Source: Candidatus Marinacidobacterales bacterium (GTDB lineage Bacteria > Acidobacteriota > Vicinamibacteria > Marinacidobacterales > DATDRI01). Taken from it: a stretch of 64,000 bases of DNA. A model generated the notes under the pieces. The model saw only the letters and a program-made list of their open reading frames with translations. It searched no databases and was not told where the DNA came from. The stretch covers positions 5,760,001-5,824,000 of the forward strand of contig OZ245365.1 in the NCBI GenBank assembly GCA_965226495.1, written 5' to 3'. Position 1 is the first letter of the stretch. Every line of letters starts with the position of its first letter. Position numbers and translations under genes: made by a program. Shown here one piece after another: positions 141 through 31,931 of the stretch.

Positions 141-814
141 TCAGTACTCCCGACGTCCCTCTAGGGCCTTTAGAATCGTGACCTCGTCCGCGTAGTCTAA
201 CTCACTGCCCACCGGGATTCCCATGGCGATTCGGGTGACCCGGATCCCGAACGGTTTGATGAGTTTCGAGAGGTAAATGGCGGTAGCCTCACCCTCGACG
301 TTGGGGTTGGTGGCCAGGATGACCTCCTCGAACTCTCCGGCCCGTAGCCGTTCCAGGAGCCCTGAGATCTTAAGACTTGACCCTCAGTACTCCCGACGTC
401 CCTCTAGGGCCTTTAGAATCGTGAGCTGTTCCGGGCCAACATCTTGAGCTGTTCCGGGCCAACACCTTGGAGGGGCGAAAGGGCTCCCATCAGTACGTGG
501 TAGCGCCCCTTGAACTCGTGGGTCTTCTCGATGGCCACGACGTTGGGGGGCTCCTCAACCACGCAGAGGAGTTTGGAGCTACGATCGGCTCTGGTGCAGA
601 AGTTACACGGGTCGACATCGGTGACGTTGTTGCAGATCTGGCACGTGGTGATCTTGTCCTTCAGGTCGCGGATGGCCTGAGAGAGGACCTGTGACTCCTC
701 CTTATTACCACGGAGAAGGTGGAAAGCGATCCGCTGGGCGGACTTCAACCCCACGCCCGGAAGACGCTTTAGCTCCGCGATCAATTTCGATACGGGCTCC
801 GGATAATCTTTCAC
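141..814 (-). CDS. recR: recombination mediator RecR, interrupted by a 74-bp insertion (372-445)
   Basis: N-part has HhH ([11 protein letters not shown]), C4 zinc finger (CQIC..CNFC) and Toprim start. C-part 141-371 reads [56 protein letters not shown]. Removing 372-445 gives 600 nt = 199 aa. Confidence 0.93.
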
Positions 815-1120
815 TTAGAAGAGGCCCGGGATTTTGAGTCCGCCCGCCATGTCGCCTAGCTGGCGCTGCGTCTCCTCATCGACCTTGCGCGCGGTCTCGT
901 TGACAGCGGCGGTAATAAGGTCCTGCAACATCTCCACGTCGTCTTTGTTGACCACTTCCGGGTCGATGGTGAAGCTGGTGATGACCTTGTTGCCGTTCAT
1001 CTGAACCGTGACCATGCCGCCGCCCGAACTTCCTTCTACTGACATGTCACCGAGCTGCTGCTTGAGTTTCTCCTGCATGACCTGTGCTTGTTTGAGTATT
1101 TGATCCATGTTCTTGAACAT
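815..1120 (-). CDS. ybaB: YbaB/EbfC nucleoid-associated protein
   Basis: GSSGGGMVTV..EMLQDLITAAVN motif; canonical dnaX-ybaB-recR order. Confidence 0.95.
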   Translation of the reverse strand: MFKNMDQILKQAQVMQEKLKQQLGDMSVEGSSGGGMVTVQMNGNKVITSFTIDPEVVNKDDVEMLQDLITAAVNETARKVDEETQRQLGDMAGGLKIPGLF

Positions 1121-1125
1121 CGGCT

Positions 1126-2952
1126 TTACCTCTTATTAGTGCGATCGGACCGTCGGTCGTTTCCTTCCGGCTCGGAAGGCGCTCGGCCGAGCGGTTTGAT
1201 CTCTTCGACCTCGCCCTGGAACGTCTCCAAGAAAGAGCGGACCAGTGGCTCCTTGAGCACCTTTTCTCGAAGTGCCTCCTCGGACGGCGGGGGTGGCTCG
1301 GGCGGAGACTCCTTCTTCCGATCCAATAGAGCGACCTCGACCCGCAGCGGTCGCCCAGCGCATGCGGACGCTGTTTTCTCGAGCACTTGCCTCAGCTCCT
1401 CGCTCTCGAGCTGTTCCTTGAAGAACTTCTGGTCCCCTTCGAAGCCGATATGGAGGCATTCGTCGTCTAGGCTTACGCCGTTGTGATGGGAGAGGAGCGC
1501 AGCAAGCTTTGGGTTAGCGGAACGGATGCTCTCCATAACGCGGTCGACGAGCTCGTGCGGTGCATCCTTTGGTGGGGTTGGGGGCCCTGCAGGACTGGTA
1601 GGCGCCGGGGTCGGCGGAATGTCTGCCTTCGGAGCCTCCGGCGTTGCCGCCTCCGGAACCGTTGAGGGTGAGGCCAGGGACTTCGACTGCGGCTTAGGCA
1701 CGGTGGTCCCTGTGGTCGACGTCGGTCGCGATGATGCCCGTGCAGAAGCCTTCTTTGGTATAGGGCTCGGTGCCGCGCGCTTGGGAGCACCACCCGTTCC
1801 CGGGGGGGGTGTGCCCCCCGTTGCCAGCGCTTCGAAGCGGGCTAGTAAATCCTCGAAAGAAACGAGCTCTCGAAGTTGCGCCAACTTCAAGAGCGCGACT
1901 TCCAGATGAAAGCGTGGCTCGGGAGCCCAGCGCAGTGCACCTTCGACTTGCGTGAGAAGATCGATGCTACGAATCAAATCATCTTCGGAAAGCCGACTCG
2001 AGAGCTCGGCGAGCTCCTGCGGATCCCCGGCCAGCTCGACGAGCTCTGGCGAATCCGGTGCGGCGCGAACTACCAAGAGGTCACGGAAGTATTGAATGAG
2101 CCCTCGCGCGAAACTCCTGAGATCTCGTCCCCCGCGAACCAGTTCATCGACGATGGAAAGGATGGCACCAGTCTGGCGGTCCATGATGGCCCGAGCGGTG
2201 TCGGCCAGGACCTGGTGATCGATGAGTCCCAGCAGTTCGGCTACATCTTTCTCTTCGATCTTCGTTCCCACCGCGGCGAGAACCTGATCGAGCGCCGAGA
2301 GAGCATCCCGTAGGCTGCCTTCCGCCGCCCGAGCAATTTGAGCAACTGCGGCGTCTCCGATCTCTATCCCCTCATGCTGAGCAATTTTGCGCAGCTGATC
2401 GGAGATAATTGCGCTGGGCACGGTGCGGAATTCGAATTGCTGGCACCGCGACAAAATCGTGTCCGGAATCTTGTGATACTCGGTGGTGGCGAAAATAAAC
2501 TTCACTCGGGGTGGCGGTTCCTCGAGCGTTTTGAGCAAGGCGTTGAACGCGGGCGTCGTCAACATGTGGACTTCATCGATGATGTAGATCTTGAAGCGGT
2601 CACGCGATGGAGCGTAGCGGGAGGCTTCGATGATCTCTCGCACCTGTTCGACACCATTGTTGGAGGCGCCATCGATCTCCAAGACGTCGAGACTCGTGCT
2701 GGAGGCGATCTCCAAACAAGCCGGACACTCGCCGCAGGGATTGGCGGTGGGGCCGGTGGCGCAGTTCAGTGCTTTGGCGAGAATTCTTGCGGTCGTCGTC
2801 TTGCCCACGCCGCGAACACCCGAGAAAAGGAAGGCGTGGGCCGCGCGGTCTTGCTCGATAGCGTTTCGAAGCGTGCGTGTGACGATATCTTGGCCTACGA
2901 CCTCGTTGAAAACCTTGGGGCGCCACTTGAGGGCCAGCACTTGATAGGACAT
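1126..2952 (-). CDS. dnaX: DNA polymerase III subunit gamma/tau
   Basis: YQVLALKWRP, Walker A GVRGVGKTT, CGECPAC, DEVHML, SRC motifs; Pro-rich linker. Confidence 0.97.
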   Translation of the reverse strand: MSYQVLALKWRPKVFNEVVGQDIVTRTLRNAIEQDRAAHAFLFSGVRGVGKTTTARILAKALNCATGPTANPCGECPACLEIASSTSLDVLEIDGASNNGVEQVREIIEASRYAPSRDRFKIYIIDEVHMLTTPAFNALLKTLEEPPPRVKFIFATTEYHKIPDTILSRCQQFEFRTVPSAIISDQLRKIAQHEGIEIGDAAVAQIARAAEGSLRDALSALDQVLAAVGTKIEEKDVAELLGLIDHQVLADTARAIMDRQTGAILSIVDELVRGGRDLRSFARGLIQYFRDLLVVRAAPDSPELVELAGDPQELAELSSRLSEDDLIRSIDLLTQVEGALRWAPEPRFHLEVALLKLAQLRELVSFEDLLARFEALATGGTPPPGTGGAPKRAAPSPIPKKASARASSRPTSTTGTTVPKPQSKSLASPSTVPEAATPEAPKADIPPTPAPTSPAGPPTPPKDAPHELVDRVMESIRSANPKLAALLSHHNGVSLDDECLHIGFEGDQKFFKEQLESEELRQVLEKTASACAGRPLRVEVALLDRKKESPPEPPPPSEEALREKVLKEPLVRSFLETFQGEVEEIKPLGRAPSEPEGNDRRSDRTNKR

Positions 2953-2988
2953 TTTGTCTTCGCTCGCTCTTACGGTGTTCGTTATAAA

Positions 2989-3101
2989 GCCCTGCGGTCC
3001 AGGTTCTCCTGCGGCACAGTCGAGGATCTGCTTACCGCTGCTCCCTTCCGGGTCTGACGGGGTTCACAGGTTCGGCTCGCACAGGACCTGAACCGCAGGG
3101 C
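2989..3101 (-). ncRNA. ffs: small SRP RNA (4.5S)
   Basis: Minus strand has the domain IV signature TCAGACCCGGAAGGGAGCAGCGG in a long hairpin with paired ends (GCCCTGCGG/CCGCAGGGC); typical position upstream of dnaX. Confidence 0.93.
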
Positions 3102-3149: not shown

Positions 3150-3239
3150 TGGCGGAGGGGGTGGGATTCGAACCCACGGTACGGTTGCCCGTACACGAGC
3201 TTTCCGGGCTCGCCAGATAAGCCACTCTTGCACCCCTCC
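3150..3239 (-). tRNA. tRNA-Ser(GGA)
   Basis: GGAGGGG/CCCCTCC acceptor, G73, CCA, long variable arm, GGTTCGAATCC; anticodon loop CCGGAAA. Confidence 0.92.
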
Positions 3240-20358: not shown

Positions 20359-20434
<76 letters not shown>

Positions 20435-20449
20435 ACCGCTTTGAAGGGG

Positions 20450-20548
20450 GACGACATCCCCCTCACCCAATCCCTCTCCCCAGGGGGGAGAGGGGTAATT
20501 CGTGCGACGAGGAACTGCGGTTCGTTTCCTCGTCGGTCCATTAGTAGT
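20450..20548. repeat. structured ~100-bp tRNA-Arg 3' trailer, copy 1
   Basis: CCCTCACCCAATCCCTCTCCCC..GGGGAGAGGG hairpin plus CGACGAGGA..TCCTCGTCG hairpin; matches 31616-31714. Confidence 0.85.
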
Positions 20549-20625
20549 TGGTACGCCTGAGAGGATTCGAACCTCTGGCCTTCTGCTCCGGAGGCAGACG
20601 CTCTATCCAGCTGAGCTACAGGCGC
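20549..20625 (-). tRNA. tRNA-Arg(CCG)
   Basis: Anticodon arm TCTGC-CTCCGGA-GCAGA, GGTTCGAATCC, CCA. Confidence 0.96.
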
Positions 20626-21383: not shown

Positions 21384-23378
21384 TCAAACTCGATTTTCCG
21401 AGACCGATGTCGGTCGGTCTTGGAAAAGAAAAGATGCGAGTGCTTCGTCCGTCATCGAATAGGACCCGCTCACCGCGGTCGCGTTCTCGAACATCGTCCG
21501 GGCTCGCAATCGGAGACCTTCGCGTTCGTAAAGTGTTCCGAGGGAGCTCAAGTATTCCGGGTTGCCGGGGTCGAGAACGGTCGCCATCTTGAGATTCTGC
21601 TCGGCCTCGAGTCGCCATTTGCGATTGTGGGCAAGAGCCAGACCGAGCACGTGGTAATACTCGGCCTGATCGCTAGCGAGATCGATTGCCTCCCGGCAGA
21701 GCACGATCGCTTGCCAATAATCCTCTGCGCCGAATGCGTCACAGGCACTCTCGAAGATGGACTTCGCCCGCGCCCTGTCATGGGCGTCGCTCGAGGTGGA
21801 CGCTGTCTTCTCCGCAGGCACGCTCTTTTCGTTGGCGTGAATTTGAGTCGAAAGTGTGGCAAACGCTTCGCTTACTCGAGTGAAAAGGAAAGATAGCTTC
21901 TTGTGAAACTGGGGGTCGTCGCTGCCGGAATAGCGGTCCGGGTGAAATTGAAACGTTTTCCTTTGAAACGCTTTCTTGATTTCGGCGGGCGTCGCTCCCT
22001 GGTCCACCCCCAGCACCTGCCAGTCATCTTGTTGCTGAAACAGCTGAAAGAGCTGCTCGACTTCTTGGCGGACCGGCTCGGCAGCTTCGGCAGGCTGTGT
22101 TTCTTTGTCAGTCTTCTTGGTGGTCGGCTCCCCATCGAGCTCGGTGATTCCGGCGCGAAGCAGGCCTAGGAGCGTGCGTGCGGTGTCCTTCTCGGAAAGT
22201 GCGCTCACCTTGAAGACGTCACGCGGCGTCACCGTGCCGTCGATTCGCGAAAGGATGAAAGCCTCTTGCGGAGTCAGGTTCACGTTGTGGAAGTGAAGCA
22301 ATGGGGACGAAACGAGACGCAGCCGGCGATCTTCCCTGAGGAGGACACGAAGGTGCGGCTCGATTTGCGTGGTCCGTCGTGCTTCTTTCATCAGGCTGTC
22401 GGCCACCGAGTCGTCGAGGGTTGGCGTCGTTTCCTTGGTCGAGAGCTTTCTCTCGGATTCTTCCGCGCTCTCCAAATCGAAGAAGACCTTGCCCGGCTCG
22501 GCTGACTCGATTCCGGGGATCGACCGTAGAGCTAGTCCGAACTCGCGTCCAGAAGCGAATCGCTTCAGGGGATCTTTGGCTAGAGCGTTTTTCAAGACCG
22601 CCTGAACGGCTATCGGCAATCCTAGCTTCTCGCAGTCGAGAGGTTCGGGCTCCTCGTTGACGATCTGGAGGAGCACGCCGGTCAAGCTGTCGCCCCGGAA
22701 CGGTTTCCTGCCCGACAAACATTCGTAAAGGATGCAGCCGAGTGAGAAGAGGTCCGATCGACCGTCCATGTGACCGGCCCGCGCTTGCTCGGGCGACATG
22801 TAGTCGGGCGTTCCAAGTATGCTTCCGCTGGCGGTGAGGTTGGTGGAAGTCTCGGTTTTAGCGATTCCGAAATCTGTTACCTTTACGTCGCCAGAGCGAG
22901 AAACCATCACGTTGGCCGGCTTCACATCACGGTGAACAACCTTGTGCTGGTGGGCGTGATCTAAAGCTCCCGCCACTTGAGACAAGATCTTGACGGTGTC
23001 TCGAAGGCCAAGGCGACCGTGCTTCTCGAGAATCGCCTCCAGGGTTACTCCATCGACGAACTCCATGACAATGACGCACCGCTCGTCGGTCAAGATGATG
23101 TCGTGTGTGGTTACGATATTGGCGTGGTGCAGCTGGGCTGCCACCTGTGCCTCCCTCAAGATCCGCTTCTTGAGGTCCTCTATCTTGCTGGGATAGGCGA
23201 AGCTGTCGAGACGAAACTGCTTGATGGCTACCGTGCGGTCCAAGACGGCGTCGTGAGCTTCGTAGACGTCGGCGAAGGCACCGGTGCCTACCTTGGACTG
23301 AATGTGATAGCGGCTTCCGACTGCAGCCACTACAGCATGACGGCCGGTCTTCGGGTCAGTTGCTCCAGAATCGCTCAT
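21384..23378 (-). CDS. Hanks-type Ser/Thr kinase fused to a DnaJ (HPD) domain and TPRs
   Basis: GTGAFA, VAIK, HRDVKPAN, DFG, GTPDYMSPE; WQVLGV..EIKKAF..FHPDRY; C-terminal TPR helices. Confidence 0.9.
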   Translation of the reverse strand: MSDSGATDPKTGRHAVVAAVGSRYHIQSKVGTGAFADVYEAHDAVLDRTVAIKQFRLDSFAYPSKIEDLKKRILREAQVAAQLHHANIVTTHDIILTDERCVIVMEFVDGVTLEAILEKHGRLGLRDTVKILSQVAGALDHAHQHKVVHRDVKPANVMVSRSGDVKVTDFGIAKTETSTNLTASGSILGTPDYMSPEQARAGHMDGRSDLFSLGCILYECLSGRKPFRGDSLTGVLLQIVNEEPEPLDCEKLGLPIAVQAVLKNALAKDPLKRFASGREFGLALRSIPGIESAEPGKVFFDLESAEESERKLSTKETTPTLDDSVADSLMKEARRTTQIEPHLRVLLREDRRLRLVSSPLLHFHNVNLTPQEAFILSRIDGTVTPRDVFKVSALSEKDTARTLLGLLRAGITELDGEPTTKKTDKETQPAEAAEPVRQEVEQLFQLFQQQDDWQVLGVDQGATPAEIKKAFQRKTFQFHPDRYSGSDDPQFHKKLSFLFTRVSEAFATLSTQIHANEKSVPAEKTASTSSDAHDRARAKSIFESACDAFGAEDYWQAIVLCREAIDLASDQAEYYHVLGLALAHNRKWRLEAEQNLKMATVLDPGNPEYLSSLGTLYEREGLRLRARTMFENATAVSGSYSMTDEALASFLFQDRPTSVSENRV

Positions 23379-23681
23379 GGTTCCTTTGTCTTCTGGAGGC
23401 ACGAGGCTGGGGGAACGACGCCTCAACCGGTACTTAGAGCAAAAACTGTGCCCACCCCTTGGGGACTTTCCCGGTCCCTAGAACTGACTTCTCTCGCGTG
23501 GGTTAGAGGAAAAGCACCTGGGTCCGCATTGCAAAAAAGAGAGGGTAAACGGCAACGAGCCTGTGGGGAAACTCCCGTAACAAGAAACTAAAGTCGACGG
23601 GGTGTTGCCCTACGTTCGGCTTCGAAAACACGACTAGAGAGGTGTATCTCTTTGTGGAGCACGTGGTTGGCGGGACGAAGC

Positions 23682-25412
23682 CTATTTCGTCGAGAGCCTT
23701 CTCCCGGTCCGCAATTTCGCGGTGGCGGCGAGGTCGAGACCGCGTTCGTCGATAGCGACCTTGTAGACTTCGCGGGCCGCCTTCCGTGAAACGTAGCCAT
23801 CGAGGACATCGGTCAAAACCTTTTCTGGATCGCGTTCGGCGGGTTTGCCGAATCCTCCACCACCGGCCGTGATGCTGCGGATCCGGTCTCCGGTAGAGAC
23901 CTTCAGACGATAGGTGCCCACCCGCTTTTCACGCGATGTTCCGGGAAACAGAATCATCCCGTGGGGCTCTGGCTCGGTGCCGCCCGCAAGCGCCCAAGGG
24001 CGGGTCTTGGACTTCTTCGTCACCGATAGAAAATCGCCGTCAAAAAGGAAACGGGCGTCCAGCCCGATGCCGAGCCCTCCTCGGAACTTGCCGGCGCCGC
24101 CGCTATCATCCCTGAGCTCGAAACGCTCGATGAACATCCCGGTTTTGGTTTCGAGAACCTCGACCGGCGTATTGCGCACCACGCTCTGAAGGGGGTGGCT
24201 GAGGCCATTCGGGCCATCATGGTCGATCGTCGCACCCCAACCCATCGGATCATTATTGCTGACCGCGAACAACTGTTTCGTGTCCGGGTGAATCCCAACC
24301 ATCATGAAACCGACGACGTCGCCTCCAGAAGAAGCAGGCACGCGGTCCGGCATCCCCTGAGCTAGTGCTTTGGCGACCAGCTCCATGGCGACGGTTACGG
24401 TCCACAGCGTGAACGTCGCGGCGGGGTAAACGGCGTGGAAGATATTGCCGGGGGGAGCGACCACCTCGAGAGGCCGGAAGTTCCCGGCGTTGGCCGGTGA
24501 GTGAGGAGTGGTCAGCGCCTTGAAGAGCGCTCTGCAGAGCGTCACGGTCGCTCCAAACGGAACGTTCACCGGTCCCGGAACCGCTCCTGAAGACTCGGTG
24601 AAATCCACCTTGAAGCGCTCGCCGTCGATGGTCACGGTGACCCGTATGGGTAACATCTCGTCCGTCACGCCGTCGTCGTCGAGGAAGCCCTCGGCACTCC
24701 AAGAGCCCTGAGGAAGTTCCTTCAAAGCCTTGCGAGAAAGTTGTTCTCCATGATCTAGTAGCTGGGCCACCGCGGTGTCGAGAGTTTCTCGACCGAATTT
24801 CTCCAGGATCTCGACGAGTCTTCGCTCGCCGGTTCGTACGGACGCGACCTGAGCGTGCAGATCTCCCAACACCAAGTCCGGCATGCGTGAGTTGAAACGG
24901 ATGAGATCGATAATTTGCGGATCGGGTTTACCCTTCTTATAGACCTTGGTTCCCGGAAAAATGAGTCCTTCCTGATGCATGTCGGTGGAGTCGAGGACGT
25001 AACCTGCATCTTTCGCGCCGAGGTCCATCCAATGCGCGCGTATGCAAGTGTAGGCGAAGGGTCGATCGGCGCCCGGGAGGAACACTGGGGCGAAGAGGGT
25101 GACGTCCGAGGCGTGAGCGGAGTTCCAGTAGGGGTAGTTCAGGATGACGATGTCGCCGGCGTCGAGGTTCTCCTCACCGATGTACTCAACACCTTTGCGG
25201 ATCGCGTAGTCGTTGCTGCCCAGAAACGTGAGCATGCTGGGAGCTTCGGCGATGGGCTCGAGCTGGCTATCGTAGATGGAAATACCGAAATCGAGGATTT
25301 CGTAGATGACAGGGTTGAACGCGGTTCGTATGAGAGTGCGCCGCATCTCATTGGCGGCGGAAAAAAGATAGCTTCGGATGACCTCGACGGTAGCGCCGTC
25401 CAGTTGCTTCAT
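23682..25412 (-). CDS. hydantoinase B/oxoprolinase family protein
   Basis: RTAFNPVIYE..DF, HASD, AHWMDLG, QEGL, NTPVEVLE, SGGAGKFRGG, GGGGFGKP, DVLDGYVS. Confidence 0.93.
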   Translation of the reverse strand: MKQLDGATVEVIRSYLFSAANEMRRTLIRTAFNPVIYEILDFGISIYDSQLEPIAEAPSMLTFLGSNDYAIRKGVEYIGEENLDAGDIVILNYPYWNSAHASDVTLFAPVFLPGADRPFAYTCIRAHWMDLGAKDAGYVLDSTDMHQEGLIFPGTKVYKKGKPDPQIIDLIRFNSRMPDLVLGDLHAQVASVRTGERRLVEILEKFGRETLDTAVAQLLDHGEQLSRKALKELPQGSWSAEGFLDDDGVTDEMLPIRVTVTIDGERFKVDFTESSGAVPGPVNVPFGATVTLCRALFKALTTPHSPANAGNFRPLEVVAPPGNIFHAVYPAATFTLWTVTVAMELVAKALAQGMPDRVPASSGGDVVGFMMVGIHPDTKQLFAVSNNDPMGWGATIDHDGPNGLSHPLQSVVRNTPVEVLETKTGMFIERFELRDDSGGAGKFRGGLGIGLDARFLFDGDFLSVTKKSKTRPWALAGGTEPEPHGMILFPGTSREKRVGTYRLKVSTGDRIRSITAGGGGFGKPAERDPEKVLTDVLDGYVSRKAAREVYKVAIDERGLDLAATAKLRTGRRLSTK

Positions 25413-25436
25413 ACTCCGCGATCTATCAGCGGCGCG

Positions 25437-26213
25437 CTATTTTCTGGCGCGAAAGTTGACGCCCAGGGTACCGAAGTTTTGTGCGCTCGACTTCTGCGGT
25501 GCGTCCTCATAGATGGGAGCCCGCCATGTCACCTCGAAGTCTTTGAATCCGGCCGCCAAGACCGTGGCCTCGAGCTCTGCTTCCAGCAGAGCGCCGGCAA
25601 TTCAGCCGGTCCAGAGATCGATGCTCTCCTTGGCATTTTCGGAGACCGCTTTTTGGACCACGATGTCGGCGATCTGCAATCGGCCTTCTGGTTTGAGGAC
25701 ACGCGCCATTTCCGAAAGGGCCGTGAGCTTGTCCGGCATCAGGTTGAGTACCCCGTTCGAGATCACGACATCCGCCCAACCATCGTCGACGGGCAGTTTC
25801 TCGCCATAGCCCTGCCGGAACTCCGCGTTCTTGACTCCGGCTTCGCCCGCGCTGTTTCGTGCCTTCTTCACCATGCCTTCGGTAATGTCGATGCCAATCA
25901 CTTGTCCTTCGACACCGACCATCCGTGCAGCGATGAGGCTGTCGATGCCGGCTCCGCAACCGACGTCTACGACTTGCTCTCCCGGCCGAAGCTCGCCGAG
26001 GCTGAATGGGTTTCCCGTTCCCGCGAAAGATGCGATCGACCCCTCGGGAACGCCCTTCAGCCAGTCCTCGTTGTACCCGACACGCTGGGTGTGAGAGTGG
26101 CCGGTATGAAAGTGAAAGCCCTTTTGGGGCTCGCTCGCGACCGTTTCGTACTCCTCTTGAATAGCGTCTCGAAGCGCGTCGATATCAACTGCTGGTTTGC
26201 TCGGTACTTTCAT
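25437..26213 (-). CDS. arsenite-methyltransferase-like SAM methyltransferase, probable selenoprotein (UGA at 25602-25604)
   Basis: VDVGCGAGID, DVVISNGVLNL.PDK..RVLKPEG. The frame continues past UGA: IDLWTG-U-IAGALLEAELEATVLAAGFKDFEV..NFRARK* (TAG 25437-25439), 258 aa. Confidence 0.85.
25574..25592 (-). promoter_or_regulatory. putative bacterial SECIS hairpin
   Basis: GCTCTGC-TGGAA-GCAGAGC perfect 7-bp stem starting at +10 after the UGA; G at the second loop position. Confidence 0.7.
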
Positions 26214-26342
26214 GTATTCGCTCCTCGGATATTCTGCCCTTGGGGGAGCACGAACGCAACAGCGGTGGAAGCCTGCGGATCGAGGCGGAACGAACTATTG
26301 CCCGCCTCGTCGGCAGGATTTCGTCGACTAGACCGGCGCTCG

Positions 26343-27467
26343 TTAGGACTCCGGCGCCTCCCACACCGCCTCTTGGTGCGTCAGAATCAGAGAGAAATAA
26401 GGTAGGACTCTAGTCTCCATCCACTCACGCACCATCTCGCCATGAAAGGCACTATCCTGCTCGAACTCGTGAGGAATTCCGGCCTTGGTTAGCGCCTGCG
26501 AGAAGGCCCGGTTTCCCGCCGGGATGTGCTGCAGGTGGTCGGACATACCGGTAGCGAAACGGATCCCTTTCAGCTTTAGAAGGTTCGAACGATATTTGTC
26601 GATCATGTGGACCGGAAAATTCTCTAACCATTTGTTGTAAGCGCTTTCATTGCGCTGGACCTTCCCATTCACGATCTCGAAAGGATAATCGACGAAAAGG
26701 GGAGGTTTGTCGGGGTTGGGAGACAGGCCTGCCGCCAATGCGGTGAGTGCGTGGGGGTAGTTTCCGTGGGTCGCGGTGGTCAAATGAGTTTGGACCAGGC
26801 CTTTCCTGTCTTTGGCTTCTATGGTAGGAATCCACTCCGGATTACCCGCTTCGACGTCTTTCACTATATCCAAACAGCAGGCACTGAGCCCGTAAACGGC
26901 GCTAAAGACGTCCGCATTTCTGATCGCGATATAGAGAGCGGAATATCCTCCCATCGATTGACCAACAATAGCGCGGCTACTTGCGTCGGGGAGCGTTCGA
27001 TACGTTTCATCGACGTACTTGACCAGGTCGCGGGCAACAAAGTCCTCCCAATTGCCGATGACCGGCGAGTTGACGAAATAGGAGCCGCCGTAGCCATTGC
27101 GGCCGTCTGGCACGACCACGATCATCTCTTGGATCCTACCCTCGCCGATGAGCTGGTTCATGGCGGTTTGAATATTGAAGCCCTGATAGCTCCCATCTCG
27201 CCATGAGGTATTGGTTCCGTTATACCCGTGAAGGAGATAAACGGCTGGGTAGCGCTTGTCGGAGTTGGTGTAGCTGGGAGGCAAGTAGACCATGACCTGT
27301 CGGTTCGCCGAGTCCCCGAGGAGGTTCCCTTCCAGCCCAGGGCTGTGGACCGTCTGATAGGTCAGGAAACCTTGAGCCATGGCCGCCGAGGGCGCCGTTA
27401 CCAGCATGACTAGCGTCACAACGAGACACGCGTCTACTAGTACTCTCATCGATTGATTCTTGAGCAT
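26343..27467 (-). CDS. secreted alpha/beta-hydrolase (putative esterase family)
   Basis: VYLPPSY, YLLHG, GQSMGG nucleophile elbow; signal peptide. Confidence 0.9.
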   Translation of the reverse strand: MLKNQSMRVLVDACLVVTLVMLVTAPSAAMAQGFLTYQTVHSPGLEGNLLGDSANRQVMVYLPPSYTNSDKRYPAVYLLHGYNGTNTSWRDGSYQGFNIQTAMNQLIGEGRIQEMIVVVPDGRNGYGGSYFVNSPVIGNWEDFVARDLVKYVDETYRTLPDASSRAIVGQSMGGYSALYIAIRNADVFSAVYGLSACCLDIVKDVEAGNPEWIPTIEAKDRKGLVQTHLTTATHGNYPHALTALAAGLSPNPDKPPLFVDYPFEIVNGKVQRNESAYNKWLENFPVHMIDKYRSNLLKLKGIRFATGMSDHLQHIPAGNRAFSQALTKAGIPHEFEQDSAFHGEMVREWMETRVLPYFSLILTHQEAVWEAPES

Positions 27468-27580
27468 GACTTCTTCCTCCAGAGGGTATGATCGCCAGTG
27501 CTTTCAGAAGAAACAGGAGTCTTCTATAGGGTATTTTGAAGTCGGAGTCAACGACACACATTGAGCATTGGAGGAGAACA

Positions 27581-28962
27581 ATGATCCTTCGCAGCCCGCT
27601 CGGCCTGATTGGAATGGCCCACGTTTCGCTACTCGGCCTCATCCTCTGGTCGTCACCGGTCGAAGCAAAGTCCAGTGAGGAATCTCCAAAGCTCCTCTCC
27701 TGGACCGAGCAGATCGCGGTTCGCGAGGCTTGGCTACCGAAGCGCTACGAGATGCTCTTGACCATGATGCGCAGGCATGAAATCGACATGTGGATCGTTG
27801 TCAATGAAGAGTTTCACGATGATCCGTTGACCGAGTACGTGGCACCCCCGAGACCGTACGCGGGAAACAGGGACACGTTCGTCTTCGTCGATGCCGGCGA
27901 AGAGGGTCTGCGGAAAATAGTCCTAGCCGGGTATGAAGAGGAGCATCTCACACGTTTTTTCGAACTACCCCAGTTTGCTCCGGACCCGGACCAACCCCGG
28001 CCTGCGGAGGAAGTTCTGGCTGAGCTCTATGAAACTCACAAGCCGGAGAAGATAGGTCTCGGAATCGGCGGCGGCCGGGGCATGACTCGTAGCCTCACTC
28101 ACGACGGCTACTTGTTTCTGAGTGAGGCCATGGGAAAGGAAGCGACGGCGCGATTTGTCAGCGCGCAAGACTTGATCGAAGAGTTCCTGGATACCCGTAT
28201 TCCGGAGGAGCTTCCCCATTACGAGAACCTCGTGCATCTCACAGAAGTCATAGCTAGACGCGCCCTATCGAACGAGGTCATTACGCCAGGGGTAACAACG
28301 GTGGGGGACATTCGACGGTGGCTCTATGGCGCGCTATGGGAAAACAGTGTCACGACTTGGTTTCAACCCGACTTACGTGTGCAACGAATGGGACTCGAGG
28401 AAAAACGTCTCGGGGGTTTCTGGCGGTGGCCGAGGAAAGTGTCGTGATTCGACGGGGTGACGTCGTTCACCTGGATTTCGGAATCAGCTACATGGGTTTC
28501 GATAGCGACTGGCAGAAACACGTTTACGTCTTACGAGACGGCGAACAGGACGTTCCCCTGGGGCTCAAGAGGGCGATGGCCAACACCAACGCTCTTCAGG
28601 ACGCTCTTACCTTGCGGGCCTCGAGGCCTGGGCGCACCGCGGGTGAAGTGCACGACGCCACGATGGCGGAAATGGCTGAGAAGGGCATTGAGGCACAGAT
28701 CTACTCTCACCCTTTGGGCAACCACGGTCACGGGCTCGGTGCTGGTATCACTTTCTGGGCGGCTCGAGGTGATCAAGATGAGCTGCTCTCAAAGCGCCTC
28801 CGCGAAGGCTCCTACATCTCCATCGAGCTGAATACCCGCACGGCGGTTCCGGAGTGGGGCGGTGAGAAGGTCTACATCATGATGGAGGACCCGGCCTACC
28901 TTACCGACGAAGGTTGGAGATTCTTCCGGCCGAGGCAGGAAGAATTCTACTTGGTTGAGTGA
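27581..28962 (+). CDS. secreted M24 Xaa-Pro aminopeptidase-like protein, frameshifted at ~28401-28405
   Basis: Two overlapping ORFs join if one A is added to an A5 run (..[42 protein letters not shown]). Either pseudogene or sequencing error. Confidence 0.8.
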
Positions 28963-30969: not shown

Positions 30970-31046
30970 TGGTACGCCCGGTAGGATTCGAACCTACGAC
31001 CCACTGATTCGAAGTCAGTTACTCTATCCAGCTGAGCTACGGGCGC
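30970..31046 (-). tRNA. tRNA-Arg(TCG)
   Basis: Anticodon arm ACTGA-CTTCGAA-TCAGT, GGATA D-loop, CCA. Confidence 0.93.
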
Positions 31047-31089
31047 ACCTAGGGGAAACTATATGCCGGCCCGCGCTGCCGGGCAACTA

Positions 31090-31430
31090 TCCAAGCGGGG
31101 CGGAGGCCCGCCGGCCCGGAGGAATTGAGCCAGGGGGAGTAGCTTCGAAGTGATACTGGCTCATCTGATTCCTTCGAAGGAGCCCCAAAGCGGACGATTC
31201 GACGGAGCATCAAGGCTTGGGGGTGGGGCCCCGCGCGCACTATCAAAGTTCGAGGGCCAGCGCGTGGGGGTGGGCCCCCGCGCGACCTAGTCATACGACC
31301 CGAGAGGGTCGTCGGCCGGGAGGAATTGGCTCATGAAGTGCGGACGCCAAGGGAACCCGGCCGTGCTTTTAGGCCCGAGCGAAGAGCGAGGGCCAGCGCG
31401 TGGGGGTGGGGCCCCGCGCGCACTAATAAA
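31090..31430. repeat. mosaic REP/BIME-like array (same family as 6921-7379, inverted)
   Basis: Three GGGGGTGGG(G/C)CCCC cores plus shared TTTTAGGCCCGAGC, GACGGAGCATCAAG and GGAGGAATTG modules. Confidence 0.85.
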
Positions 31431-31507
31431 TGGGGTGAGTGACGGGGCTCGAACCCGCGACCACCGGAACCACAATCCGGTGCTCTACCAACTGAGCTAC
31501 ACTCACC
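31431..31507 (-). tRNA. tRNA-His(GTG)
   Basis: G-1:C73, anticodon arm CCGGA-TTGTGGT-TCCGG, CCA. Confidence 0.96.
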
Positions 31508-31615
31508 ACAAGACCCTTCAGCTATCCCCCTCACCGGCGTCTGGCCACGTACCGGGGGGCACGTCCTTTTTTGACGCCCGCCACCTCCCCGGAGGGGAGA
31601 GGGAACAAAAGAAAT

Positions 31616-31714
31616 GACGTCATCCCCCTCACCCAATCCCTCTCCCCGAAGGGGAGAGGGGTAGTTCGAGCGACGAGGAACTGTGGTTCGTTCCCTCGTC
31701 GCTCCATTAAATAG
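31616..31714. repeat. structured ~100-bp tRNA-Arg 3' trailer, copy 2
   Basis: Gapless match to 20450-20548; a related CCCCTCACC..GGGGAGAGGG element lies at ~31525-31603. Confidence 0.85.
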
Positions 31715-31791
31715 TGGCACGCCTGAGAGGACTCGAACCTCTGACCCGCGGCTTAGAAGGCCGCTGCTCTATCCAGCTGAGCTACAGGCGC
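31715..31791 (-). tRNA. tRNA-Arg(TCT)
   Basis: Anticodon arm GCGGC-CTTCTAA-GCCGC, CCA. Confidence 0.96.
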
Positions 31792-31853
31792 AACACGTGG
31801 TCCGCGGGCTTCCTCTCCTGTTGCTTTTTGCCTGGGCGCCCGCGCGGAATACA

Positions 31854-31931
<78 letters not shown>

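Follow-up and report, generated by a model that had tools for sequence, protein, structure and literature searches.

Selenocysteine (Sec)-containing relatives of the arsenite methyltransferases have been catalogued as a selenoprotein family since 2007–2008 under the name 'arsenite S-adenosylmethyltransferase' (PRK11873 / NF008823, UxxG). One table in PMC13188914 gives the entry 'Arsenite methyltransferase, NF008823, UxxG, WP_011987699.1' with Fomenko et al. 2007 (Science) as its source, and the same family is listed in PMC9312934. Eight of its sequences were reported among Global Ocean Sampling (GOS) data in 2008 (PMC2398784), and 41 proteins from 39 organisms in 2016 (PMC5029168). Fusion forms of ArsM are attributed in PMC13188914 to Haft and Tolstoy 2025 (mSystems). 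Here we describe a new, unannotated member of this family, encoded on the minus strand of a 64-kb stretch of DNA (the window; positions 5,760,001 to 5,824,000 of contig OZ245365.1) from the genome of a Candidatus Marinacidobacterales bacterium, a single contig of 6.34 Mb. Judging from its sequence and that of its homologues, it is very probably a genuine selenoprotein gene, the UGA at codon 204 being predicted to be read as Sec. Taken as a whole, the locus is with high confidence best explained as encoding a 258-residue Sec-containing, S-adenosylmethionine (SAM)-dependent methyltransferase of ArsM-like fold that belongs to the catalogued UxxG family.

The canonical arsenite methyltransferases possess four conserved cysteines, at positions 44, 72, 174 and 224 (PMC6138428). 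According to that paper, conversion of As(III) to methylarsenite (MAs(III)) requires all four, C174 and C224 are required for MAs(III) and form the metalloid site, and C224 alone holds dimethylarsenite (DMAs(III)), weakly. The phylogenomic rule given in PMC5552862 accepts a sequence as ArsM only if at least three of the four cysteines are present.

In the list of open reading frames (ORFs) of the window the gene is represented by ORF 26213..25605 (minus strand), which has 203 codons from the ATG at 26213–26211, terminates at ..IDLWTG and is followed by TGA. The same frame remains open for 54 codons past this TGA (IAGALLEAELEATVLAAGFKDFEVTW...NFRARK) and reaches a TAG at 25439–25437, giving 258 residues in total and placing the U-x-x-G motif of the family at U204-I-A-G207. 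Direct reading of the sequence therefore bears out the preliminary description of this stretch, which had reported the end of the ORF at UGA 25602–25604 and the 54 further open codons. It had also predicted that gene callers would truncate the protein, and the 203-residue form is indeed what is found both in the ORF list and among the closest relatives in public databases. The features of the gene are as follows.

25437..26213, minus strand: full selenoprotein coding sequence, 258 codons plus TAG stop, predicted from translation with TGA read as U, Pfam and NCBIfam matches and full-length Cys-containing homologues.
26221..26226, minus strand: Shine-Dalgarno-like GAGGAG, 7 nt 5' of the ATG, identified by reading of the sequence.
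25602..25604, minus strand: UGA codon 204, predicted to be read as Sec within the motif W-T-G-U-I-A-G, from the Cys at this column in full-length homologues and the TGA in orthologues.
25437..25601, minus strand: C-terminal 54 codons and stop, overlooked by gene callers, with the conserved motifs AGF, ITW, APQ.SSA and FGT.G, amino acid conservation of 0.9–1.0 at many positions and free third-codon positions (89 orthologues).
25574..25592, minus strand: putative bacterial Sec insertion sequence (SECIS) hairpin, with an 8-bp stem GCUCUGCU/AGCAGAGC closed by a GGA loop (alternatively 7 bp and UGGAA), 9 nt past the UGA, from folding, covariation and frozen synonymous sites.

The closest relatives retrieved in a search of 5.8 billion proteins (78–100% identity) end at the same place as the ORF: P0001–P0004 and P0041 have 203 aa, P0010 has 202 aa and P0040 has 185 aa. 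The occurrence of this short form both in gene calls and in public databases would agree with a different account of the locus, in which translation truly stops at the UGA, the product is a truncated methyltransferase of 203 residues and the downstream frame is its decaying remnant. We regard this account as very improbable, since homologues of the Cys form run through the same region. At 58–71% identity, full-length homologues span 96–100% of the read-through product, carry Cys at the Sec column (LWTGCIAGALLE; the column reads LWTG[C/U]IAGAL) and are conserved to the end (..FGTLGINFRARK). Such Cys/Sec pairs, together with strong conservation 3' of the UGA, are what the preliminary description had proposed to look for among homologues.

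The in-frame TGA is shared by the close relatives of the gene. Across the genomes of 41 relatives (this one included), 14 matches showed at least 65% identity and each of the 14 contained exactly one TGA, whereas the weaker matches, 20 in number at 38–52% identity, represent paralogues, of which 18 are free of stops. A sample of 201 genomes spread evenly over the phylum yielded 13 matches at E ≤1e-70, again with one TGA in all 13. For other species, we considered the best 80 of 576 relatives of the Sec-form query, taken from contigs of one genome per species. The codon is TGA in 75 of these loci, TGC in four and unmatched by the pattern in one. As the best-scoring loci were selected with a Sec-form query, this proportion is biased upward as a measure of how common Sec is across the family, and counts as a point against our reading. 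The 80 loci come from Chloroflexota, Gemmatimonadota, Acidobacteriota, Rubrobacter-like Actinomycetota, Myxococcota, Desulfuromonadales, Nitrospirae and Betaproteobacteria.

The 14 loci of the window's order and the 75 of other species make up the set of 89 Sec-form orthologues referred to throughout. In this set, which covers several phyla, the 54 downstream codons are conserved as protein while their synonymous sites are free, which speaks against a decaying remnant. An open frame of 54 codons would by itself be little proof; more than chance would provide is the retention in 89 orthologues of TGA and hairpin together with the protein sequence that follows. Two further observations concern individual loci. 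One Anaerolineales genome holds two Sec-form copies about 10 kb apart (L048 and L073; contig JABTUW010000003.1), both with TGA and hairpin. In two loci of the window's order, L038 (G001) and L039 (G018), the N-terminal side looks damaged, with an open frame of 157 and 128 codons, respectively, before the TGA and, in L038, an internal deletion after GCGAGID; both keep the TGA and the SECIS, and they could be pseudogenes or assembly errors.

The hairpin that follows the UGA, GCUCUGC-UGGAA-GCAGAGC, is 19 nt long and lies inside the coding sequence. It begins at +10 and has its loop G at +18 after the UGA, both exactly as first described. Folded alone with ViennaRNA it has an energy of −11.7 kcal/mol and the U-A pair closes as well, leaving a GGA loop on a stem of 8 bp, which is also recovered when 66 nt of context are folded. 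The bacterial SECIS model set out in section 5 of PMC13188914 specifies a loop of 3–9 nt with G in one of its first two positions (N1-G-[G/U]-N-N2), a stem of 4–16 bp, a distance of 16–37 nt from the UGA and a minimum free energy of −7.5 kcal/mol or lower. With a loop of 3–5 nt (U-G-G-A-A), a stem of 7–8 bp, a spacing of 16–17 nt and the above energy, the hairpin lies within all four constraints.

Selection on the RNA is suggested by the codons of the 89 Sec-form genes. Third-codon entropy is 0–0.36 bits at codons +4, +5, +6, +8 and +9 (GCU CUG CUG .. GCA GAG), compared with 0.8–2.0 bits at nearly all other codons, those for invariant Gly and Ala included. The fixed Ala codons of the hairpin end in A or U (GCU in 100%, GCA in 89%), whereas elsewhere in the stretch Ala is mostly encoded by GCC or GCG. 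Covariation was evaluated on a MAFFT alignment (A3) of 82 distinct sequences, comprising 656 cells, against 500 column shuffles. Standard pairs occupy 98.6% of the cells, two-sided changes occur in three pairs (seven compensatory cells), and none of the 500 shuffles matched the observed values on any of five measures. When the partner strand was slid, pairing fell to 29–51%. A conserved, covarying hairpin after the UGA is not what a true stop followed by a remnant would leave, and neither is the complete Sec machinery described below.

The genome encodes everything that decoding of the codon would call for, as the preliminary description had suggested verifying. Genes selA (570 bits), selB (378 bits) and selD (333 bits) all score above their curated cut-offs, and tRNA-Sec (selC) was found at 70.9 bits, above the Rfam cut-off, ARAGORN likewise calling a tRNA-SeC with anticodon tca. 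A weak match to the tRNA-Sec model within the window, at 3150–3239, is an ordinary tRNA-Ser(gga) and was rejected. The selD gene (G000:C1:5697778-5698710), which lies about 62 kb before the start of the window, itself contains one in-frame TGA at ..TSAG-U-ASKL.., with a predicted stem-loop after it, and terminates at a TGA stop; the in-frame TGA gives the organism at least one selenoprotein besides the one described here. At the locus described here, SelB and tRNA-Sec would decode UGA204, directed by the 19-nt hairpin located 9 nt downstream.

It might be argued that sequencing or assembly wrongly produced the TGA in place of TGC, TGT or TGG, or that the organism reads TGA as Trp. Two metagenome proteins of the Joint Genome Institute (JGI), P0005 and P0006, do have Trp in place of Sec (LWTGWIAGALLE), probably a TGA that the gene caller translated under a code in which TGA means Trp; some Sec forms may thus hide in databases as 'W' variants. 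An error, the possibility that the preliminary description had wanted checked in reads, is contradicted by Logan contigs from runs of three studies (X1, X2 and X12), which cover 25602–25604 and read TGA without any other letter. These contigs extend over 857, 502 and 814 nt of the stretch; the first two match it throughout and the third differs once, at 26126. One of the three runs may be the source sample. A TGA at this column is also present in 89 independent assemblies. As for decoding as Trp, the homologues have Cys and not Trp at the column, the anticodon of tRNA-Sec is tca and selD ends at a TGA stop. Both variants of this explanation strike us as vanishingly unlikely.

Metagenomic contigs also pile up in the same region. 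Over window positions 25559–25632, roughly 70 nt, four metagenome or metatranscriptome runs show a summed contig depth increased by a factor of about 14 to 320, with values of 512–3027 in the bin 25559–25595 and 201–1455 in the bin 25596–25632 against about 3–46 in the flanking bins, and many contigs end there. A depth peak coinciding with contig ends is the expectation if many community members share a near-identical stretch of UGA and SECIS, and such sharing seems to be the case, apparently breaking assemblies.

Several results weigh against reading the gene as a functioning selenoprotein gene or lessen the force of the evidence for it. The RNA contigs of metatranscriptome run X18 do not show expression of this gene copy: there are four matches only, of 90–95% identity, on the conserved SECIS stretch and from other organisms, and a single exact contig of 203 nt at 26174–26376, for which DNA carry-over is possible. 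In its 66-nt context the hairpin is only modestly more stable than shuffled sequences (z −2.2; 6/200), and the conserved peptide ALLEAE accounts for part of the nucleotide conservation at this position. The contrast with the Cys forms, which have different codons there and fold at −1.3 to −2.8 kcal/mol, so that the hairpin is missing from 4/4, is a contrast with four genes only. Set against the conservation, covariation and Sec machinery presented above, these points leave our assessment of codon 204 as very probably a Sec codon in place.

The encoded protein is a class I SAM methyltransferase according to its Pfam domains (Methyltransf_31, E 3.2e-32). The best NCBIfam models are of the ArsM type and match residues 9–230 with 220–239 bits, all below their cut-offs: NF041537 at 239 bits (cut-off 510), NF041536 at 223 (575) and NF047649 at 220 (460). 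The model NF008823, 'arsenite methyltransferase', gives 228.3 bits (E 1e-67) against a cut-off of 263. On the strength of this highly significant match the protein can be considered a relative, yet one outside the naming threshold of NCBI, which names the protein cluster only 'methyltransferase domain-containing protein'. The other members of the Sec branch that were scored, five of five, likewise fall below the same cut-off, at 207–237 bits.

The AlphaFold2 (AF2) model has a mean predicted local distance difference test score (pLDDT) of 90.5 and a predicted template modelling score (pTM) of 0.89. Residues 205–258 are built into the fold at pLDDT of about 83–98, which again disagrees with a 203-residue product. 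The nearest solved folds found by Foldseek are CrArsM (5evj), CmArsM (4fr0/4fs8/6cx6) and human AS3MT (8xt7), at template modelling (TM) scores of about 0.7 and 27–30% identity. HMMER alignment to CmArsM and CrArsM pairs Sec204 with the Cys of ..ECLGGAL.. (C224 of CmArsM; C206 in human AS3MT); C174, the Cys of ..SNC.., falls opposite G154, and C72, in ..GCGNP.., opposite T66. By analogy with these enzymes, Sec204 would occupy the metalloid-binding Cys224 position and face the methyl group of SAM.

The alignment shows how few of the defining residues are retained. Residues 65–69 read GTGNP in place of the usual GCGNP, as the preliminary description had noted. In the C44 region, where a canonical ArsM paralogue of the same genome has CC, an invariant HFHTG motif occurs, the correspondence being positional, from ungapped spacing to the GY motif, and not aligned. 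A metal site made up of His34, His36 and Sec204 would be a further, speculative possibility. The protein has no N-terminal Cys, and its sole Cys, C86, lies within the variable GxGxG motif. One of the four ArsM-defining cysteines is therefore kept, as Sec, and the protein falls outside the rule of at least three in four. The equivalents of C72 and C174 are missing from the whole branch: GTGNP and SNG occur in 89/89 Sec-form orthologues, and among the Cys forms SNG is present in 4/4 and GTGNP in 3/4, the motif pattern being unmatched in the remaining one. The suggestion made at the outset that Sec may be the only catalytic thiol or selenol is thus supported, T66, G154 and HFH standing in place of cysteines, and the companion suggestion that substrate or mechanism may differ from those of classical ArsM holds as well.

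The paralogue just mentioned (G000:C1:2339136-2340038; L126:5001-5903) has all four cysteines, within CC, GCGNP, SNC and SCLSGAL, and passes NF008823 with 285.7 bits. It is directly followed by arsN2 (L126:5900-6382; 139.9 bits against a cut-off of 125). A regulator of the MarR type precedes it. From these matches, the arsM-arsN2 pair is likely the real arsenic methylation locus of the genome.

In the window, the methyltransferase gene is followed after 24 nt by a hydantoinase B/oxoprolinase gene (23682–25412) and preceded by an esterase gene (26343–27467), with a Ser/Thr kinase gene farther away. The arrangement with hydantoinase B and esterase is kept within the genus only (three loci), and these neighbours give no functional hint. 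A scan of 23400–27700 for promoters and terminators found nothing above the expectation from shuffled sequences, and no terminator between the methyltransferase and hydantoinase B genes. Two features of the wider window may be recorded here. The product of 21384–23426 (minus strand), 680 residues long, joins a Ser/Thr kinase, a DnaJ (J) domain and C-terminal tetratricopeptide repeats (TPR) in an unusual combination, and there are two tRNA clusters, Arg-His-Arg-Pro at 30970–31931 and Lys-Arg at 20359–20625, both on the minus strand.

To see which genes recur beside the methyltransferase, ORFs within about 3 kb were clustered over 94 loci, namely the 14 of the window's order and the 80 others. 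The genuine neighbours that recur are an ArsR-type helix-turn-helix (HTH) protein fused to rhodanese (25 loci), a major facilitator superfamily (MFS) transporter (17), OsmC (16), DsrE (12 + 5), a metallo-β-lactamase (MBL)-fold hydrolase (11) and a flavoprotein resembling flavocytochrome c sulfide dehydrogenase (FCSD; 4). Of the 80 loci outside the window's order, 46 have one or more of the rhodanese, OsmC, DsrE and MBL genes as neighbours, and in several homologues of the Cys form a TusA domain is fused to the C terminus. No arsC, acr3/arsB, arsH or similar gene was found among the neighbour clusters seen in at least three of the 94 loci. Outside the window's lineage, the company of the gene, as predicted from these sequences, is therefore one of sulfur-carrier and thiol-redox proteins rather than of arsenic resistance.

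With three of the four defining cysteines missing, a score below the ArsM cut-off, a canonical arsM elsewhere in the genome and neighbours other than ars genes, the substrate is probably not inorganic arsenite. On balance we lean towards an enzyme that does not methylate inorganic arsenite, and for this branch the family label 'arsenite methyltransferase' is probably mistaken. There are points to be made on the other side. The nearest solved structures (CmArsM, CrArsM and AS3MT) and the best NCBIfam models all represent arsenic methyltransferases and the literature names the family in the same way, reviews listing it as 'arsenite methyltransferase, UxxG'; glutathione or partner proteins could make up for the thiols that the protein lacks; ArsR and rhodanese also occur in arsenic systems and are not exclusive to sulfur; and the sulfur-type neighbours (rhodanese, OsmC, DsrE and MBL) are present in 0/14 loci of the window's order.

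These points can be combined into a competing explanation, according to which the protein is a genuine arsenic enzyme and the name used in the literature is right: Sec204 would bind As(III), with glutathione, another small thiol or partner proteins replacing the missing thiols. Since C224 alone holds DMAs(III) in the catalytic scheme of PMC6138428, an enzyme offering one ligand could carry out the late methylation step, from DMAs(III) to trimethylarsine (TMAs). For the first step, As(III) to MAs(III), one cysteine in four disagrees with the requirement for all four stated there, and the rule of PMC5552862 and the NF008823 cut-off also exclude the protein. The arsM-arsN2 locus elsewhere in the genome and the absence of ars genes from the neighbour clusters of at least three in 94 loci are further arguments against it. 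We regard a genuine arsenic enzyme as possible, though doubtful.

If arsenite is not the substrate, the following scheme can be outlined, its substrate and partner proteins being speculative. The selenolate of Sec204 would capture a soft nucleophile as a covalent adduct, SAM would methylate the terminal atom of this adduct, and a partner thiol would free the methylated product and reset the selenol. The likeliest substrate would be sulfane sulfur or selenium, held as an Se-S or Se-Se adduct and delivered by a carrier protein; an arsenical needing one ligand only, such as DMAs(III), would be less likely. Thiol proteins acting in trans (of the rhodanese, DsrE, TusA, OsmC or AhpD type) might deliver the substrate or reset the selenol. 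Extended to the whole Sec-dominated branch (HFHTG / GTGNP / SNG / WTGU), the scheme would make its members single-selenol methyltransferases that are not arsenic enzymes, methylating an Se-S or Se-Se adduct and releasing methanethiol or methaneselenol. We offer this extension tentatively and consider it rather unlikely as it stands.

As regards annotation, the gene and its closest database relatives are cut to 203 residues and should be read through as selenoproteins. Sec dominates in the branch and only one of the four cysteine positions of ArsM is kept, so that the function assigned to it is probably incorrect, a concern for surveys in which arsM-like genes are counted as potential for arsenic methylation. 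The branch also provides a clean test case for the role of a single active-site selenol in a methyltransferase. The stretch of about 35 nt containing the UGA and SECIS is nearly identical across phyla at the nucleotide level and could serve as a practical metagenome probe for such genes. Should the single-selenol sulfur or selenium methyltransferase proposed above prove true, it would represent a new selenium-dependent route for the detoxification of sulfide/persulfide or selenide, occurring in Chloroflexota, Gemmatimonadota and Acidobacteriota of soil and in their relatives, and environmental surveys would be overcounting arsM. The literature examined, with Fomenko et al. 2007, Haft and Tolstoy 2025 and supplements lying outside it, holds no statement on the loss of ArsM cysteines in this branch or on its sulfur-gene context, and we make no claim of novelty for either.

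Compared with known systems, the protein shares with MddH, MddM1 and MddM2 (of the UbiE/UbiG type; PMC11445057, PMC12904073) a possible functional analogy only, these being small SAM methyltransferases of the cytosol that act in the detoxification of reduced sulfur; the two papers make no mention of ArsM or selenocysteine and report no link with ArsM-like proteins. Closer in sequence are NF041537 (ArsM/AhpD, UU), NF041536 (ArsM/DUF2284, UU) and NF047649 (methyltransferase/UXPK-star), the methyltransferase halves of which are the best-scoring models. Unlike these, our protein has a single UGA and no AhpD or DUF2284 domain, ends at ..NFRARK-TAG and scores 220–239 bits against cut-offs of 460–575. 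With canonical ArsM/AS3MT (CmArsM 4FS8/4FR0, CrArsM 5EVJ, human AS3MT 8XT7) it has in common a Rossmann-type SAM domain, a substrate-binding domain and the alignment of Sec204 with the As-binding Cys224/C206. It differs from them in having Sec instead of Cys, in lacking the C44, C72 and C174 equivalents (HFH / T66 / G154), in its length of 258 versus 320–400 residues and in having no ars operon context. The closest counterpart remains the catalogued UxxG family, with which it shares the fold family, the U-I-A-G motif, the bacterial kind of SECIS within the ORF and truncation by gene callers, and from which it differs in its score, 228 bits, under the 263-bit cut-off of NF008823.

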